Source: a virus
Taxonomy: Duplodnaviria; Heunggongvirae; Uroviricota; Caudoviricetes
Direction: 5' to 3' (one strand)
Virus record (IMG/VR): IMGVR_UViG_3300042894_001948
DNA: 61,328 nt
The translations under genes and the position numbers were made by a program. Below, piece after piece: positions 26,238 through 56,257 of this stretch. The notes under the pieces are model-generated. The model searched no databases. It saw only the letters and a list, made by a program, of their open reading frames with translations, and was not told the origin of the DNA. The stretch's first letter is position 1, and each line of letters starts with the position of its first letter.

Positions 26238-26840
26238 ATGCCCAGCACAATTATTTATATAGATATAAAACCAACTTATCTGTATATCAAACAACATTCA
26301 GTAACAGGTTTAAAATATTTCGGCAAAACTACTTCTCAAGATCCTAAAAGATATTTAGGATCAGGAAAACATTGGAAAAATCATATTACTGCACACGGAA
26401 AGGAATTTGTAGAAACTATTTGGGTTTCAGATCCATATACAAATAAAACTATGTTAACTGAATTTGCATTAACCTTTTCAAAAGAAAATAATATAGTAGA
26501 ATCTAAAGAGTGGGCTAACTTAATACCTGAAAACGGTATTAGTGGAGCAGTTCAAGGAAAACCGTGTACAGAAGAAACTAAATCTAAAATACGTGATTCA
26601 AAGAAAGGTAAACCTGGTCCAAATAAAGGAATCAAAGCAACTAAGCCTGCTTGGAATAAAGGCATTAAAACAGGTAAACCTGCACATAATACAGGTAAAC
26701 CGCACTCAATAGAAACTAGAGCTAAAATGTCTGCTTCTCAACAAAATAGACAACATATCTCTTGCCCGCATTGCAACACAACAGGAGTAAACAGTTCTAT
26801 GAAACGTTGGCACTTTGAAAATTGTAAGGTAATCAAATGA
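26238..26840 (+). mobile_element. Free-standing GIY-YIG (Seg-like) homing endonuclease with NUMOD3 repeats
   Basis: PTYLYIKQHSVTGLKYFGKT, YLGSG; C-terminal CPHC..RWHFENCK. Confidence 0.8.
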
Positions 26841-34230: not shown

Positions 34231-34319
34231 ATTAACACTTGACAAATATTATTTTTATGTTATAATATGCACAAGTTAACAATAATAAGCACATTAAATA
34301 TTTTAGTGTGTTTATTATT

Positions 34320-34666
34320 GTTGTAATTCCTTCAAAGTGACGGCATCAAACACTGGGGTTCGAAACCCCACATCTCCACCATAAAACACATTAGAGGTAT
34401 CGGAGTGGGGCAACAGCCGTAGACTTCCTGCCCCTCAAATGGGAAGTGATAGTGTGTTTTATAATGGGGATGAATTGGATTCGACTTGGTGAGATAATGG
34501 AGACGGCAACAGGTGAGGTGACTGTCCTAAACAGCGCAAAACTTATAGACGCAAAAGCATCTAAATTCGAGTATATGACAGTTGACTTCTCTTTGGAAGC
34601 AGCTGACATGGTAGCTTAAGAAACTACCGCTCTGGGGCATGTATGCCTTATTAACCAAAATACAAC
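34320..34666 (+). ncRNA. ssrA: Circularly permuted (two-piece) tmRNA
   Basis: Acceptor piece (T arm ggggttcgaaacccc, CATCTCC-ACCA ending 34381) precedes the coding piece (GGGGATG at 34466, G3:U70 pair, GGATTCGAC); tag ORF 34551-34619 AKASKFEYMTVDFSLEAADMVA; TTGACA/TATAAT promoter 34239-34266. Confidence 0.92.
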
Positions 34667-34667
34667 T

Positions 34668-34691
34668 AAGCACCCTTCGGGGTGCTTTTTT
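34668..34691. terminator. Bidirectional intrinsic terminator
   Basis: aagcaccc-ttcg-gggtgctttttt. Confidence 0.9.
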
Positions 34692-35883
34692 ATTGACCAT
34701 TTGATTTACTAAGGTTAATAAGTTTTTCATTCCAGTAATTGTAATAATTGATTAATTCTTGACTCATTATTTTTACAAATTTTTTATATACCGGGTATAA
34801 CTTTTTATCTTTAGGATGATTAAATGTCTTACTGAAATATTCAAATCTTCTAATTTTAATCGGGTGACCATAAACATCTTTTAACGCGGTTGGTCCATTA
34901 GACAAATTAGCAATAATCAATTTAAGTGCTTTTACTTGAGATTTTAAATGTGACACGTCTCTGCCATATTCATCAACCGAACCGCCCCATGCAAAATCTA
35001 AATGACGTATAACGCTAACTGCAGCGTCATGCGCATGTGCTGGTATTTCTTGTAACGACGAACTATATATTTTATAGTTTTCAGGCGACTTATCTAAATC
35101 TCTAATTGCATTATAAAACTTTTCTTGATTTGGCTCTACTTTACTTCTAAATTCAGTGCCTTGTTTAGTAACCAATTTGTGCTGTTTAGTATCTTTATCA
35201 AATACTCGTTTAGTTTTATATCTAGATTGAGGTGCGTGTTGTCTAATATGTACTAATTCGTGAACCATATTATCTATGTTTTTAGTGTCTAAGAAGAATT
35301 CAGCTAAACTAAAATCACCTAGTTTCAAATTTCTAAATGCAGGTTCGATTTGAAACATATCAGTTATCACAGGCACATATAGATTCTTTTGTTCAGCATT
35401 ACTCCATCCTCTGTTAACATCAGTCATTGCTTCTGTACTATATAACAAGTCTTTTAGCATATCTATATCTTGATGTTGGAAAGCATTCTTATCAGTTTCA
35501 TAGAATGTTACATAGTCATAACCAGCCGAGGCGAGGGCTCCTGGATTATTAGACTGAGGTAGAATTTGAATATGAGAAAAGTTTGTTCCACTTACATCCG
35601 CGCACACTTTAGCATATTTCTGCTGTATAACATAATGTGCTATCTTTACTATCTCTTCTAACATGTAAATAATATCACTAGGTTGCATTTTCTCATAAAA
35701 ACTACATATCCTGCCGTCGGACATATCTTTAAGGTATACTGCAATGGCATTAAATCCATTTATAGTTTCTAAGTTAAATGTAAGTCCTAACGGTTGTTCT
35801 AAAATATCATTTAACCCATTGTGCAATCCGTGTATCCAGTGAGCACCTGATATTGCTTCGCTTATAATTTCTTGTATTTTCAT
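34690..35883 (-). CDS. HExxH protein with MKIQEIISE leader
   Basis: MVHELVHIRQ; YSSSLQEIPAHAHD, similar to the motifs in 18265-19068. Confidence 0.65.
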   Translation of the reverse strand: MKIQEIISEAISGAHWIHGLHNGLNDILEQPLGLTFNLETINGFNAIAVYLKDMSDGRICSFYEKMQPSDIIYMLEEIVKIAHYVIQQKYAKVCADVSGTNFSHIQILPQSNNPGALASAGYDYVTFYETDKNAFQHQDIDMLKDLLYSTEAMTDVNRGWSNAEQKNLYVPVITDMFQIEPAFRNLKLGDFSLAEFFLDTKNIDNMVHELVHIRQHAPQSRYKTKRVFDKDTKQHKLVTKQGTEFRSKVEPNQEKFYNAIRDLDKSPENYKIYSSSLQEIPAHAHDAAVSVIRHLDFAWGGSVDEYGRDVSHLKSQVKALKLIIANLSNGPTALKDVYGHPIKIRRFEYFSKTFNHPKDKKLYPVYKKFVKIMSQELINYYNYWNEKLINLSKSNGQ

Positions 35884-42940: not shown

Positions 42941-43015
42941 GTCGCTATCGTCTAGTGGTTAGGACACAAGGTTTTCATCCTTGCAACCGGGGTTCAATTC
43001 CCCGTAGCGACGCCA
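42941..43015 (+). tRNA. tRNA-Glu(UUC)
   Basis: Cloverleaf, anticodon arm caagg-ttTTCat-ccttg, CCA. Confidence 0.93.
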
Positions 43016-43033
43016 AATATTATCCGAGGTAAG

Positions 43034-43558
43034 ATGATACATGATTTTGAAAGAGCGGTGTTGAACCATCTAATACACAAAAGTGTTATACCAATCGATG
43101 GTATTTTTCAAATAGAAGAATCTCATTTAACAGAATATATGTTAATGTATTCCAACTTATTTGGAAAATTAGGTAAAGGGTTAAAAACTAAAACAAATAC
43201 TAGATATGCTAGAAAGTTAGCCGGACTAACATTATTAAAATTAAATTTTGAAAGAAATGCTAAATTTACTCAATTAAAATCCGGTTTAGTATATATAATT
43301 GAAAATCCTCAATTCTTACATCATTATAAAATTGGGATGACAATAGAGCTTCAATCAAGATTAGATACATATCAGACGTATGATCCGTACCGACAATTTA
43401 AAATTGTTAAATACGAGTTTGTATTAGATCGCTCACTTACTGAGAAAAAATTGTTATCTCATCCAGATATAACAAAAGAATGCGGAGAATGGGTTAGTAA
43501 AGCTAACGCAATTGAAGTATTTGAGAAAATATGTTATTCCAAGGTAGCACAGCGGTAG
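43034..43558 (+). mobile_element. T5orf172/GIY-YIG-like putative endonuclease within the tRNA array
   Basis: LVYIIENP..HHYKIGMT...RLDTYQTYDPYR; 3' end overlaps tRNA-Asn. Confidence 0.65.
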
Positions 43559-43612
43559 TGCTTCGGATTGTTAATCCGCAGGTCGGGGGTTCGAATCCCT
43601 CCCTTGGAGCCA
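43538..43612 (+). tRNA. tRNA-Asn(GUU)
   Basis: Cloverleaf, GTT anticodon, G73, CCA. Confidence 0.92.
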
Positions 43613-43623
43613 AACAAGTTTAT

Positions 43624-43915
43624 TGGGATGTCGGCTTAGAAGCAGCCATCATTTAAAGAGTGACCCACAAACTTTGCTAAAGTGATACTTAAACTTACGG
43701 CAGTGTGAAAGCAACCTGTAAGCGTATGTAACTGCGTTAATATAGAGTCCGGCAATATGCCTTAATGGCTGTTACGAGTCTAAAGTGATTGCTATATTAA
43801 ACGGATGAGGGAGGTACACCCTAATGTTAAGGATGTTTTTCCTAATAGTTAAACTTAACATGTCCGAGAGTTAATTAGGATGTCGCAGACAGGTCTTTGG
43901 CGTAACAGCACACCA
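43624..43915 (+). ncRNA. 23S rRNA GTPase-associated-centre (H42-H44) mimic, split by a 238-nt insertion
   Basis: 43626-43661 joined to 43900-43913 gives GGATGTCGGCTTAGAAGCAGCCATCATTTAAAGAGT|GCGTAACAGCACAC, 45/50 identical to E. coli 23S 1055-1104 as recalled; no other rRNA sequence nearby. Confidence 0.85.
43662..43899 (+). mobile_element. Structured intervening sequence, possible atypical group I intron
   Basis: Follows a U and ends in G; P4/P5-like cttacgg-cag-tgt-gaaa-gca-acc-tgtaag; canonical P7 and J8/7 not found. Confidence 0.45.
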
Positions 43916-44025
43916 CTAAACAACAGAAAACTTTCTCCATCAACGAAAGTGTAGTAGTTGTCATTTTTAAATGATAGCTATTACTAAAGCACTAAATATC
44001 AAGTGTTTTAGTAATAGTTATATTT

Positions 44026-44110
44026 GCCAGGTTCGCATAGTGGCCATTGCAACGGATTTGTAATCCGTCGGGGAAACCCATCAGGAGTTCGAGTCTCCTA
44101 CCTGGCTCCA
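44026..44110 (+). tRNA. tRNA-Thr(UGU) with long variable arm
   Basis: GCCAGGT/ACCTGGC acceptor, acgga-ttTGTaa-tccgt, variable arm cgggg-aaac-cc, U73, CCA. Confidence 0.8.
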
Positions 44111-44119
44111 TATTAAATA

Positions 44120-44207
44120 GAAGAATTGGCTGAGCGGTCGAAAGCACTCCCCTGCTAAGGGAGCATACGGAAACGTATCATAAGTTCGAATCTTATATTC
44201 TTCGCCA
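44120..44207 (+). tRNA. tRNA-Ser(GCU)
   Basis: Cloverleaf, long variable arm, G73, CCA. Confidence 0.92.
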
Positions 44208-44293
44208 AACAACAAATAATTTAATTAGTAGTTGACAAATACATAAAACAATGTATAATACACGCATTAGTTAAACAAATTACAGATCATGTT

Positions 44294-44872
44294 ATGGAAC
44301 AATATAAGAATAGTGACGGCACATATACAAGTCCAAAAAACAACAGGACTTATAAAAGTTTAAAAGCATTTACTGCCCACTGGCATTATGCACATACTAC
44401 TAATCCAAACGCATTTGCTGAACGATTATATAATGTAGCATGTCAGTATTGCAATAAAGAATATGTGATTAGTAATCATAAACGACATGAAATTGCATGT
44501 TATTTAAATCCGATTAATATAAAAAAATGTTGTGTTTGTGATAAACCAATTAAGAATTACAAGTACAGTAAAGGTACGTGTTCTCATAGTTGTTCTAACA
44601 CACATTTTAAAGAACTAAGAAATAAACCAGAAAAATATACGCAATATGCAACTATTTGTTGGCACTATCATGTTAAAGAATGTATAGTATGTAAAGAATC
44701 AAATATTGTAGCAGTACATCATTATAATGAAAATCATAATGATAATACACTATCAAATTTAGTTCCATTATGTCCTACTCATCATCAATACATGCATAGT
44801 AGATTTAAAATCCAAATTCAACACATAGTTGATGAGTATGTATTAAATATGAAAATAAAGTTTAGAGAATAG
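44294..44872 (+). mobile_element. HNH endonuclease with Cys-rich Zn fingers within the tRNA array
   Basis: CIVCKE..VAVHHYNENHNDN..SNLVPLCPTHH; own promoter 44232-44259. Confidence 0.8.
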
Positions 44873-44882
44873 TGTGTTGTGT

Positions 44883-44955
44883 CAGGGTATAGCTGAGGTT
44901 GGTTTAGCACCGCGTTTGGGGCGCGGAGACGGGAGTTCGAATCTCTCTATCCTGA
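44883..44955 (+). tRNA. tRNA-Pro(UGG), no encoded CCA
   Basis: ccgcg-ttTGGgg-cgcgg; flanked by gtgttgtgt/acacaacac extension. Confidence 0.88.
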
Positions 44956-45007
44956 CACAACACATTACTAAATTTAACCCAACATAGTACGCGAATACTA
45001 TAGTTTT

Positions 45008-45059
45008 TGAATGCTAACAGCAATTATTACTTTCAATGGTGAATTTAATGCATTCAGTT
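45008..45059 (+). ncRNA. Y-like RNA 8 with Glu(UUC)-like loop
   Basis: tgaatgc/gcattca stem, TAACAGCAAT, atta-CTTTCAA-tggt. Confidence 0.7.
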
Positions 45060-45082
45060 ATATTATTTGCATACAACAGTTT

Positions 45083-45139
45083 TGGATGCTAACTGCAACT
45101 TTAAACTTTCTTTTTATGAAACTTAAAATGCATCCAGTT
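45083..45139 (+). ncRNA. Y-like RNA 9 with Lys(UUU)-like loop
   Basis: tggatgc/gcatcca stem, TAACTGCAAC, tttc-TTTTTAT-gaaa. Confidence 0.7.
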
Positions 45140-45149
45140 ATATTTTACT

Positions 45150-45224
<75 letters not shown>

Positions 45225-48769: not shown

Positions 48770-49378
48770 TTAAGTTGTTTTTGGCGCGATTAGTGATTTA
48801 CATTTATCAAAATGCCATCTTTTAGCATTTGATGCTCCTTTTATATTAGATAAGCAATGCGGACACGTTAATATCTTAGGTGGTCTAGAAATACCAATAC
48901 TTCCTATAGATATTTTTTGTCGTGTTTCATCTGATACTATCCCAGTTTTACCCTTCTTCCACGATTCTCTACCCTTAGTTGTTTTAGATATTTTTTGTCG
49001 TGTTTCAGTAGAAATAGTTTTTCCTTGATGTTTAAGCCCAGATTTTTTTGAACTTTCTTGCGTACAATGAAATGTTCCGGCTCCATTTGATGAGTTTAAC
49101 CATTTTGGATTAGCAGCAGCATTAATTTTTAATAAGAATTTATTTTCGTATGCACATGCCTCTTCTTTTGTTGTAAATGTTTTGCGAACCTCAAATGAAA
49201 ATGCAGATTTTCCATGCATGCTAATTAAATTATGAATTTTGATTGACGATGTAAAATAGGTATCCCACAATTGAGCCGGCTGGCACTTTTTAGCATAACG
49301 AACTCCGTAATATTTTTCGCCGGTTAAAAGAAATGTAATACAATAAGTAAATGGAATATAAATAGTATTGCTGGTCAT
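48770..49378 (-). mobile_element. Free-standing GIY-YIG (Seg-like) homing endonuclease
   Basis: PFTYCIT...KYYGVRY, YFTSS; C-terminal CPHC..KRWHFDKCK; leader copy C. Confidence 0.78.
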
Positions 49379-53334: not shown

Positions 53335-53922
53335 ATGCCAGCTTTAATCCCAATGGTTGTAGAGTCAGAAGCAAAAGGTGAACGTTCGTATGACATTTAT
53401 TCGCGACTACTTAAAGATCGAATTCTTATGCTTGATTCAGATGTTAACGAGCATTCTGCAAGTATTATTGTTGCTCAGTTGCTTTTTTTAGAAAGTCAAG
53501 GCAACGAAGATATTAGTTTCTTTATTAACAGTCCAGGCGGCGTTGTAACAGCAGGACTTGCAATTTATGATACTATGCAATTTATTAAACCAGACGTTGC
53601 AACTATTGTTATGGGTCAAGCATGTAGTATGGGCTCATTGTTAGCAACAGCAGGTGCACCAGGTAAGCGTAAAATGCTACCAAATGCAAGGCATATGATT
53701 CATCAGCCTAGCGGTGGCGCACGTGGTCAAGCCACTGACATGTTAATTCAAGTTGAAGAAATATTAAAGATGAAAAAATCTTTAACACAGATTTACGTTG
53801 ATCACAACAGTAAAGGCAAAACGTTTGAACAGTTTGCCGCCGACATGGAGCGCGATTGCTTTATGTCCGCTACGGAGGCTTTAGAATATGGACTTATTGA
53901 TGAAATTATTACTCGTCGCTAG
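53335..53922 (+). CDS. clpP: ATP-dependent Clp protease proteolytic subunit
   Basis: [34 protein letters not shown]. Confidence 0.96.
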
Positions 53923-54082: not shown

Positions 54083-54228
54083 TTGACTTATGCGCTAGAC
54101 CGTGTATAATATAGACTAAATTAATAACTGAGTAAACTACTCAGTTATTATAAATACACTTAACTCGAGTTGAAGTTTAACGGGCGTTAGACTTCGTTTT
54201 TTATTTTCCCTTGCTTAGGAGAATTTTT
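54083..54228 (+). promoter_or_regulatory. pmoC control region: early plus late promoter and hairpins
   Basis: TTGACT/TATAAT 54083-54110; IR taataactgagt/actcagttatta; TATAAATA 54149-54156; gaagtttaac/gttagacttc hairpin; AGGAGA SD. Confidence 0.7.
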
Positions 54229-55484
54229 ATGTCAGCTACAATTGAAACGGTAAAAGCAGAAGCTAAAGAAGCTTTACTTTTGAACAAACCAGCTATGCTC
54301 GCAGGTGCAGCACTATATATAGTGTTTTACGGGTGGGTTCGTTGGTATGAGGGTGTTTATGGATGGTCTGCTGGTTTAGACTCATTTGCACCAGAGTTTG
54401 AAACATATTGGATGAACTTCCTATATATTGAAATGGTACTAGAAGTTATTACTGCTTCAGTATTGTGGGGTTATATTTGGAAAACACGTGATCGCAAAGT
54501 AATGTCAATTACACCACGCGAGGAATTACGTCGCCACTTTACACACTGGATTTGGTTAGTAATGTATGGTATCGCAATTTATTATGGTGCTTCATACTTT
54601 ACGGAACAAGATGGTACATGGCATCAAACGATCGTTCGTGACACTGACTTTACACCAAGTCATGTTATTGAGTTTTATCTAAGTTATCCTATTTACATCA
54701 TCACAGGCGTTTCTGCATTCTTATATGCTAAAACACGCTTGCCTACCTACCAAAAAGGTTTGCCATTACAATACTTAGTATCAGTAATTGGACCTTTCAT
54801 GATTCTTCCAAACGTCGGCTTAAACGAATGGGGTCATACTTTCAACACAGGAAGCTCATTATAGCAATGTAATGATGAAAACTCTGTGAAAACGGTGAAC
54901 ATCCAGAACGGACAATACCGTGCCAAGCTTAGAAATAAGAAGGTGTAACGACTATCCTGAAAGGGAGTACACTCAAGTGAGTGGAAGCGCAGAGCAACCT
55001 ACATGGTTGATGAGATAGTCTGCTCTAACTGGGAACAGTTAGCAGTTCATAAGAGAACGGTATAAGCGTAACGAACTTATATGAACATAGGCTGGTTTAT
55101 GGAGGAGTTATTTGTCGCTTAAATAAGTGGGCGCGTTTACTAGTAATAGTAAAATGAAAACTTTGTGAAAACGGTGAACATCCAGAACGGACAATACCGT
55201 GCTAAGTCTCAAAAAAGAGAAAAGTGTAACGACTATCCCGAAAGGGAGTACACTCAAGTGAGTGGAAGCGCAAAGCAACTGTAGTAGTTGAAGAGATAGT
55301 CTAATCTATATAGGAATATATAGCAGTTCATAAGAGAACGGTATAAGAGTAACGAACTTATATGAATATAATGCCTTTACATTATGGGTTTGTATTTTTT
55401 GGATGGGCTGCACTTGGTGTATTAGGTGTAGTAAATATTGAAGTACAAGCAATATCTAAATTGTTGAAAAGCGATTTAGCTTAA
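54229..55484 (+). CDS. pmoC: Particulate methane monooxygenase subunit C, three exons: 54229-54842, 55092-55119, 55374-55484 (250 aa)
   Basis: Exons join in frame (614+28+111=753 nt) to give ...[32 protein letters not shown]...KSDLA; EQDGTWHQ and TPSH copper-site motifs present; Methylobacter-like sequence. Confidence 0.96.
54843..55091 (+). mobile_element. Group I intron 1 in pmoC (249 nt, no ORF)
   Basis: P1 CUUU|C with GGAAG including U54842:G54851; P3 ctctg/cagag; P7 gactat/atagtc; terminal G. Confidence 0.93.
55120..55373 (+). mobile_element. Group I intron 2 in pmoC (254 nt, no ORF)
   Basis: P1 CGCU|UA with UGGGCG including U55119:G55130; P3 ctttg/caaag (covaries with intron 1); P7 gactat/atagtc; terminal G. 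Confidence 0.93.
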
Positions 55485-55490
55485 TTGATT

Positions 55491-55522
55491 AGAAAGGGGA
55501 CCTAGGTCCCCTTTCTGCTTTT
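55491..55522. terminator. Bidirectional terminator between pmoC and the endonuclease
   Basis: agaaaggggacc-ta-ggtcccctttct; contains the endonuclease stop codon. Confidence 0.85.
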
Positions 55523-56257
55523 ACAATTATCAAAATGATATCTTGTCATATTGCCCCCGCTACCTTCTGTATTACAATGCGGACATGTTTTTATTTTCAT
55601 ATTCCGAGATTTTGTTATTCTTCCATTAGAATAAAACCGTGTAGTGTTATCTGGTAACATAAAATACTCTTTAATACCGTCATTGAACCATTGTTTTCCA
55701 ATTGAACGTCCTAACGCACGTTGGCGCATTCTTTCTAATTGTTCATCAGAATAAACACCAGTTTTACCTTTATTCCATACTTCCTGTACACCGGTTTTAC
55801 CTTTATTCCACGGTATTGATCCTTGTTTTGCCTGACTAATTTTACAACATGTTTCTTTAGATCTAGGCGGTTTTGATATTCCCTTAGTTTTTCCTGTTAA
55901 TGCTTTACTAATGTTATGTTTGGTAGTTGCTGTATGTTTATAACCAACAGTGCCTTCTCCACCAAGAGTCATATTATACCCATTACTATTGTTAACGTGA
56001 ATATAACTATTATATTCTATTATAAAATAGTTTTCCATTATAGATAGAGTATGTACTGCATCATATGATTGATACAGGATATTCCATTCAAAGTTATCCC
56101 ATCCGTATTTACGTATAGCATTATAAAAAACTTGATTTGAAGAAGTAGTACTATGATAACGGTGTTCATATTTTCGTTTTGGCCAGTTTGAATCAAATCC
56201 AATATACATTTTTCCATTTAGTATATTTGTAGCTGAGTAGATTGTATAAATATTCAT
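55502..56257 (-). mobile_element. Free-standing GIY-YIG homing endonuclease with NUMOD3 repeats
   Basis: IYTIYSATNILNGKMYIGF, YNMTLGGEG; C-terminal CPHC..TRYHFDNCK; leader copy D. Confidence 0.85.

Follow-up and report, generated by a model that had tools for sequence, protein, structure and literature searches.

The DNA analyzed here, referred to below as the window, is the whole 61,328-nt stretch of the IMG/VR virus record IMGVR_UViG_3300042894_001948 (Caudoviricetes), and all coordinates are counted along its full length. The subject of this report is its pmoC gene (54229-55484, + strand), into which two group I introns are inserted. For methane-oxidation genes carried by viruses, the standard example is phage pmoC. 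The open reading frame (ORF) list presents the window copy as two pieces, a 217-aa frame at 54211-54864 (211 aa when counted from the ATG at 54229, with its stop at 54864) and a second + strand frame of 40 aa at 55362-55484. Pfam analysis reports hits with AmoC (PF04896) for the first exon (profile positions 6-202, E 1e-100) and for the 3' frame (profile positions 211-244, E 2.5e-8), and the profile positions 203-210, absent from both matches, are the coding content of a 28-nt micro-exon lying between them. Joining 54229-54842, 55092-55119, and 55374-55484 (exons of 614, 28, and 111 nt, all on the + strand) yields an open frame for a PmoC of 250 residues. Exon 1 comprises codons 1-204 and two nucleotides of codon 205, the micro-exon provides the last base of codon F205 and residues W206-A214 (WFMEELFVA), and exon 3 runs from P215 to A250 and the stop codon, covering the last transmembrane helix. 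The two inserts, intron 1 at insertion site A (54843-55091, + strand, 249 nt) and intron 2 at insertion site B (55120-55373, + strand, 254 nt), are devoid of any gene of their own, the only + strand ORFs of at least 25 aa lying in them being of 32 aa (intron 1) and 39 aa (intron 2). The 3' end of exon 1 reads CATACTTT, and the predicted junctions are CATACTTT/CTGGTTT and GTCGCT/CCTTTA, the slash marking the splice point here and below. An in-frame TAG (54862-54864), 20 nt into intron 1, halts the reading of unspliced RNA, intron 2 opens with an in-frame TAA as its first codon, and joining exon 1 to exon 3 without the micro-exon, whose peptide is unchanged across all full-length relatives, results in a frameshift.

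Both inserts are recognized by the Rfam group I intron model (RF00028), at 54833-55042 (67.3 bits, E 6e-15) for intron 1 and at 55110-55323 (80.4 bits, E 7.5e-19) for intron 2, each above the gathering score of 50 bits. The base preceding either intron is a T, and their 3' ends, ...CATAGG/ for intron 1 and ...ATAATG/ for intron 2, both carry the terminal G (omega-G). An alignment of 21 members of the intron family (A1) places 13 helices with 68 pairs, namely P2, P3, P4, P5, P6, P6a, P7, P7.1, P7.2, P8, P9, P9.1, and P9.2, with P7 pseudoknotted with P3. Over the 21 members, standard pairs occupy 95.6% of the pair cells, versus 34-45% in controls with the partners shifted by 1-3 columns; both-sided, compensatory changes occur in 53 of the 68 pairs, and the observed pairing values were reached by none of 500 shuffles. 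P7 varies by a single CG-for-UA swap across the family, P2 and P9 are closed by GNRA-type loops, and the consensus pairs are kept at 67 of 68 positions in intron 1 and at all 68 in intron 2. Two further hairpins, P7.1 and P7.2, stand between P7 and P3' (TCCT/GGGA and CACTC/GAGTG in intron 1, TCCC/GGGA and CACTC/GAGTG in intron 2, the slash here separating the two strands) and both show compensatory changes over the family. By these hairpins and by sequence similarity, the window introns would be of the IA type typical of phages. The two are 82-83% identical to each other, with identical runs of up to ~38 nt, and their core shows 72-81% identity to sequences in 724 records of cultured phages, whose hosts include Staphylococcus, Streptococcus, Bacillus, Klebsiella, and Acinetobacter; in this cultured-phage collection the intron core alone was matched, and no match to pmoC was found.

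The internal guide sequences match the exons that they face. The P1 helix of intron 1 pairs exon CTTT and the first intron base C (54839-54843) with the guide GGAAG (54850-54854), and that of intron 2 pairs exon CGCT and intron TA (55116-55121) with the guide TGGGCG (55128-55133), the last exon U forming a U-G wobble with the guide at both 5' splice sites. At all seven insertion sites of the family described below, the guide keeps the same alignment columns, varies with the exon, and always places a U-G pair at the 5' splice site, a covariation that is hard to explain unless P1 must form. The first-pass annotation, a reading of the letters alone, had placed two group I introns at these coordinates, each starting after U, ending in G, and possessing P1 and P7; the guide pairing and the 21-member fold confirm these features, the covariance-model check it had proposed puts both inserts above the Rfam threshold, and the boundaries stand to the base, as the intron-less alleles of related phages demonstrate.

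A total of 81 phage pmoC loci were compared. The 80 best pmoC relatives are all on IMG/VR viral contigs of up to 372 kb (L-numbers designate relative loci). Introns of the window family are present in 11 of the 81, all within the 'LHYGF' clade. Nine alleles with 94-96% amino-acid identity (L005-L009, L011-L013, and L015) possess no intron and encode PmoC as one unbroken gene of 250-251 residues, running ...ACTTTCTGGTTTATGGAAGA..GTTGCTCCATTACAC... across both insertion sites. Since these alleles read through both sites, the intron boundaries are exact to the base. Four others (L003, L004, L010, and L014) carry the site-A intron alone, at the same base and 95-99% identical to that of the window, while L016 carries the site-B intron alone, also at the same base, with 87-89% identity. 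The intron-less and single-intron alleles come from different metagenomes and share 94-99% amino-acid identity with the window. Such a presence/absence pattern, exact to the base and repeated in independent samples, marks the introns as mobile and is incompatible with a random insertion or a sequencing artefact. Spliced in silico, the window PmoC is 96% identical to the intron-less L005 protein, and the spliced frames of every relative checked encode PmoC without a premature stop.

The position of the introns bears directly on the copper sites of the enzyme. L005 aligns end to end with the PmoC chains of PDB entries 6cxh and 7s4l (Methylomicrobium-type, E about 1e-154), with an offset of +28 to the Methylococcus capsulatus numbering. 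The CuC ligands D128, H132, and H145 correspond to D156, H160, and H173 of M. capsulatus and serve as a check of this offset, and the CuD ligands Asn227, His231, and His245 (PMC12576850) correspond to N199, H203, and H217, all of which are present. The window protein thus has a full-length PmoC/AmoC (PF04896) match with all CuC and CuD ligands. Along with the CuC ligands, N199 and H203 are encoded by exon 1, and H217 is encoded by exon 3, so that a full CuD site, the loading of which is tied to the activity of particulate methane monooxygenase (PMC11725843), needs both introns removed. This division of the CuD residues had been predicted in the first reading, and the residues have now been checked on solved structures.

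Selection on the downstream exons was followed over codons 205-250. Between the window and the intron-less alleles L005, L007, L011, and L015, synonymous divergence (pS) is 0.55-0.71 and non-synonymous divergence (pN) is 0.027-0.046, with a pN/pS of about 0.05-0.15 for exon 3. Between the window and loci that themselves bear introns, the values are a pS of 0.24 and a pN of 0.018 for L010, 0.375 and 0.055 for L016, and 0.21 and 0 for L001. Exons 2 and 3 are therefore under purifying selection between intron-bearing lineages, unlike those of a gene that is dead past its first intron. The divergence of the window from L010 and L016 is mosaic, its synonymous component in exon 1 (0.56-0.71) being about twice that in exons 2-3 (0.24-0.375). 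The lower value in exons 2-3 is as would be expected from co-conversion of an intron with its 3' flank.

Taken together, and with a probability that we put at roughly 0.88, pmoC at 54229-55484 is likely a functional gene interrupted by two related, ORF-less, self-splicing group I introns of the IA type. In the first-pass annotation the gene was already held to be intact and split by two such introns, and the open 250-residue spliced frame, the RF00028 matches, and the intron-less alleles bear this out. Splicing itself is what we infer from this arrangement. Each intron would fold in the transcript into a standard group I core, P1 to P9.2, that includes the P7.1/P7.2 hairpins as well as the P3/P7 pseudoknot; each guide would pair with the last four exon bases through the U-G wobble; and each intron would then excise itself by two guanosine-initiated transesterifications. 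Only an RNA freed of both introns would encode the 250-residue PmoC, in which N199 and H203 are joined to H217 and the last helix. Translation of an unspliced RNA would terminate six codons into intron 1, that of an RNA lacking intron 1 only would terminate at the first codon of intron 2, and skipping of the micro-exon would shift the frame. The introns themselves belong to a selfish mobile family whose members have repeatedly entered the part of phage pmoC that is most conserved, their spread probably aided by free-standing endonuclease genes beside pmoC.

Several observations weigh against this explanation. The exon share of P1 is short, 4 bp in each intron, and P10 of intron 2 amounts to 1-2 bp. 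The exact arrangement of site-A intron, micro-exon, and site-B intron returned no match in JGI metagenome contigs (searched with two patterns) and none in IMG/VR, collections from which records near the window genome may be missing. The RNA data consist of assembled contigs from four metatranscriptome sets of three studies, considered at 90% likeness or more, and in these four sets no contig bridges either junction and exons 2-3 are uncovered. Finally, Chen et al. 2020 describe four pmoC-phages whose pmoC is 'fragmented into two pieces' and report low RNA cover for the small C-terminal fragment of one of them, LR_6 (PMC7674155), which could reflect poor splicing, loss of the transcript, or a read-mapping effect at a terminal exon of 111 nt. 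Their finding that the 'non-coding region' between the two pieces of LR_6 is transcribed counts, on the contrary, in favour of the explanation. Two RNA contigs reach the first boundary: a 903-nt contig of set X2 (~96% alike) stops 5 nt beyond the end of exon 1, and a contig of set X3 runs on beyond 54843 into TGGTTCAT, the sequence that another allele has for exon 2. As both possibly come from an intron-less allele or from a host pmoC, they were counted neither for nor against splicing. An apparent joint from 55005 to 55287 in an X7 contig was considered as a splice and rejected, as it stems from a related single intron that aligns in part to each of the two paralogues.

Splicing could in addition act as a regulatory gate, either conditional, responding to translation, Mg2+, GTP level, or time after infection, or alternative, through exon skipping, an idea put forward in the first-pass annotation that would add to the favoured explanation and not replace it. 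The requirement of both splicing events for a full CuD site would suit such a gate, as would the unequal RNA cover of the LR_6 pieces (PMC7674155) and the layout of two similar introns around a short exon, which is that of the exon skipping in Twort orf142 (PMC10136302), although skipping in the window shifts the frame. Against it, close relatives make do without introns, with a single one, or with introns placed elsewhere, which is the behaviour of ordinary selfish insertions and not of a conserved switch, and no sequence feature was found beyond the standard ribozyme; the gate is thus unsupported, and we regard it as improbable. Even less probable is that the introns splice poorly or not at all and that pmoC is a decaying pseudogene, giving a protein of 210 residues that holds CuC but lacks H217 and the last helix. 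The missing junction-bridging contigs, the short P1 helices, the weak P10 of intron 2, and the low cover of the small LR_6 fragment (PMC7674155) could all be read in this way, but both ribozyme cores are intact with compensatory changes, the guides match the exons, both introns keep their terminal G, and exons 2-3 evolve under strong purifying selection between intron-bearing lineages, with the exact frame and stop kept. That the two-intron layout is an assembly chimera of A-only and B-only haplotypes joined via the 28-nt exon is the least credible explanation of all, for although both kinds of allele exist, the complete junction recurs in no other IMG/VR or JGI contig, and the two introns have their ~38-nt identical runs in common, such a join would require k-mers of 28 nt or less while the reads are longer, no known B-only allele carries the intron B sequence of the window (the nearest, in L016, being 87-89% identical), independent contigs hold, within that stretch, two introns (L039) or four (L040) around exons that are shorter still, and 0.92-1.00 of the sampled words of the 151-nt junction stretch are present in 20 lake DNA runs from 17 studies, word sharing without alignment that cannot prove the linkage of the two introns.

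Under the favoured explanation of a functional, intron-split gene, the copies published as fragmented can be read anew. The proposal that some 'fragmented' phage pmoC genes are intron-split fits the presence of introns in 11 of 81 loci and the transcribed LR_6 spacer (PMC7674155), and intron interruption most likely explains the published cases. The word 'intron' occurs zero times in the text and supplements of Chen et al. 2020 (PMC7674155), and our literature search returned no paper combining 'group I intron' with 'methane monooxygenase'. The phages of that study resemble the window in being large freshwater phages with a stand-alone pmoC of the gammaproteobacterial type.

In phage pmoC, at least seven insertion sites are taken by this one intron family, and six of the seven fall inside a stretch of about 70 nt. 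From the 5' end, the seven are site E after codon 45 (L042), site F ahead of the H203 codon (L040), site A within codon 205 (the window, L003, L004, L010, and L014), site D within codon 207 (L039 and L040), site B after codon 214 (the window, L016, and L040), site C within codon 220 (L001 and L002), and site G after codon 224 (L039 and L040). L039 thus possesses two introns in pmoC, while L040 (IMGVR_UViG_3300047476_001516, 1540-2612; also L100) possesses four within ~90 coding nt, separated by exons of 13, 23, and 30 nt. The site-F intron of L040 ends in ...AAAACA, without a terminal G; were its 3' splice site set at the closest G upstream, the protein would gain NKT, in frame, immediately ahead of the CuD histidine. 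The sequence CGGT/TGGT is common to sites E and G, which both face the guide GCCG, and GGGT/ is common to sites C and F, which both face the guide GCTC(C); such like-guided sites have in common just a P1/P10 target of 4-8 nt, which hints at an RNA-guided spread to new sites. The family is not restricted to pmoC. L095 (11140-11390) carries a member inside a family-B DNA polymerase gene, at the NSxYG motif, that is 89-93% identical to intron 1 of the window. Other phage genes are interrupted as well, in L098, L099, L082, L103 (four copies), L105 (four copies), and L088 (three copies), with three or four copies packed into a few kb at several loci.

The intron tree resolves two well-supported subfamilies. 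Intron 1 clusters with introns of site A and of the polymerase gene, and intron 2 clusters with the site-B intron of L016, so that the pair does not result from a recent local duplication. An origin of intron 2 as a recent local copy of intron 1 was considered and rejected, intron 1 being nearer to the L095 intron (89-93%) and to the introns at its own site (95-99%) than to intron 2 (82%). The occupancy of at least seven pmoC sites, the relative with four introns, and the presence of the same family in a phage DNA polymerase gene are new. It is possible, although on balance we would hold it doubtful, that the CuD-loop stretch is a hot spot repeatedly colonized by one retargetable ORF-less family that moves under RNA guidance, by reverse splicing followed by recombination, and not by endonuclease homing alone. 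If true, these uncultured phages would provide a natural system for the evolution of guide sequences, and possibly for alternative group I splicing of a metabolic gene.

The mode of intron movement, which we infer, may also involve the neighbouring genes. Downstream of pmoC and convergent on it lies a free-standing gene for a GIY-YIG/NUMOD3 homing-endonuclease-like protein (55502-56257, - strand, 251 residues), which lies 17 nt past the pmoC stop and returns hits with Pfam NUMOD3 and with PHROG homing-endonuclease families (E 9e-28 to 4e-12). Two GIY-YIG-like paralogue matches also occur elsewhere in the window, at about 26538-26828 and 48794-49345. The introns are devoid of an endonuclease ORF, and an endonuclease gene adjoins the interrupted gene, an arrangement in which the 251-residue protein is a candidate mobilizer of the ORF-less introns. 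An endonuclease-like gene is found downstream of pmoC in eight of the 11 intron-bearing loci versus none of the nine closest intron-less alleles, L005 for instance having a ligase gene directly after pmoC. The four-intron L040 has the window-type endonuclease. L001 (4029-4913, - strand; identical in L002) has, beside pmoC, a complete 294-aa SegE-like/DUF7487/zinc-finger endonuclease gene whose product has in common with the window endonuclease the C-terminal zinc-finger module alone, and L003, L004, L010, and L014 show partial matches to this L001-type endonuclease downstream of pmoC. The matches in L001-L004, L010, and L014 had been considered as decayed endonuclease remnants, a reading rejected in view of the complete gene in L001 and L002. 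The association is mixed, as the window-type endonuclease also stands beside an intron-less pmoC in L020, L041, and L070, and neither endonuclease type was matched within ~3 kb downstream of pmoC in the intron-bearing L016, L039, and L042. Because of this mixed co-occurrence among relatives, collaborative homing as at cyanophage psbA is plausible but unproven.

This last system, in which a group I intron in psbA of cyanophage S-PM2 adjoins the free-standing endonuclease F-CphI in a 'collaborative homing' arrangement (PMC6083498, PMC3984707), resembles the window in that an ORF-less group I intron interrupts a phage-borne, host-derived energy-metabolism gene beside a free-standing homing-endonuclease gene. 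The two differ in that the window endonuclease is of the GIY-YIG/NUMOD3 type and not Endo VII-like as F-CphI, and in that the window-type endonuclease is also encountered next to intron-less pmoC genes. The reference group for the introns themselves is that of the phage IA (IA2-type) introns, found in T4 td, nrdB, and nrdD, in Twort/K-like phages of Staphylococcus, in the gene encoding the lysin of Streptococcus thermophilus phages, and in the Bacillus phages SPO1 and Bastille-like. As in this group, the window introns are ribozymes of ~250 nt with P7.1/P7.2, located in the most conserved, active-site-coding part of a gene, with a stop codon close behind the 5' splice site. In contrast, their host gene is the auxiliary metabolic gene pmoC and not a gene of DNA/nucleotide metabolism or a structural gene, the core genes in which recent surveys mostly find phage introns (PMC11878797). 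Regarding Twort orf142, the account given in PMC10136302 after Landthaler & Shub 1999 reports three group I introns, of which introns 2 and 3 are highly similar and surround a 23-nt exon, together with exon skipping. The window likewise has two related introns (82-83% identical) around a very short exon, of 28 versus 23 nt, neither length being a multiple of three. Unlike in orf142, the nearest relatives of the two window introns lie elsewhere, intron 1 being nearer to the DNA polymerase intron (89-93%) and intron 2 nearest to the L016 site-B intron, and L040, with its four introns and 13-nt exon, goes beyond the Twort case.

The remaining features of the locus concern its expression and context. 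A Shine-Dalgarno motif AGGAG (54217-54221, + strand) is read from the sequence 7 nt ahead of the ATG at 54229. Further upstream, a sigma-70-like promoter candidate (54083-54110, + strand) with TTGACT, a 16-nt spacer, and TATAAT agrees with 11 of 12 consensus positions, a consensus match only, of a kind no commoner in the region than in shuffled sequence. In the leader ahead of the Shine-Dalgarno motif, a terminator-like hairpin followed by a T-run (54171-54196) could either end transcription of the preceding gene or serve as an attenuator. A 26-nt GC-rich palindrome read from the sequence (55491-55516, no strand assigned), located where pmoC and the endonuclease gene converge, is probably a two-way terminator; it was not flagged by a simple scan for terminators. 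An ORF of 195 aa (53335-53922), situated ~300 nt upstream of pmoC, is one that we take, by eye, to be a ClpP-type protease candidate. The phage content of the window includes a tail-fibre-type N-terminus, several PHROG-only families, a phage-type DNA ligase, and the homing endonucleases. A permuted transfer-messenger RNA gene of the two-piece type (RF04321, 102 bits; RF01850, 87 bits) and six tRNA genes are located at 34267-34692 and 42941-45221.

For the biology of introns, a kind of element already known, the phage IA-type intron, is here placed in a new host gene, pmoC, which takes phage group I introns beyond replication and structural genes and into an auxiliary metabolic gene. Since the window introns sit in the segment that builds CuD, the complete protein would be impossible without RNA splicing. 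The recurrent insertions amount to a natural series of closely spaced sites, each faced by a guide sequence that matches it. The reading of published 'fragmented' phage pmoC genes would be corrected in turn: as copies split by introns are counted as fragmented or truncated, both by gene callers and in the founding paper, too small a share of phages would be credited with a working pmoC, and expression values obtained by mapping reads to unspliced references would be distorted.

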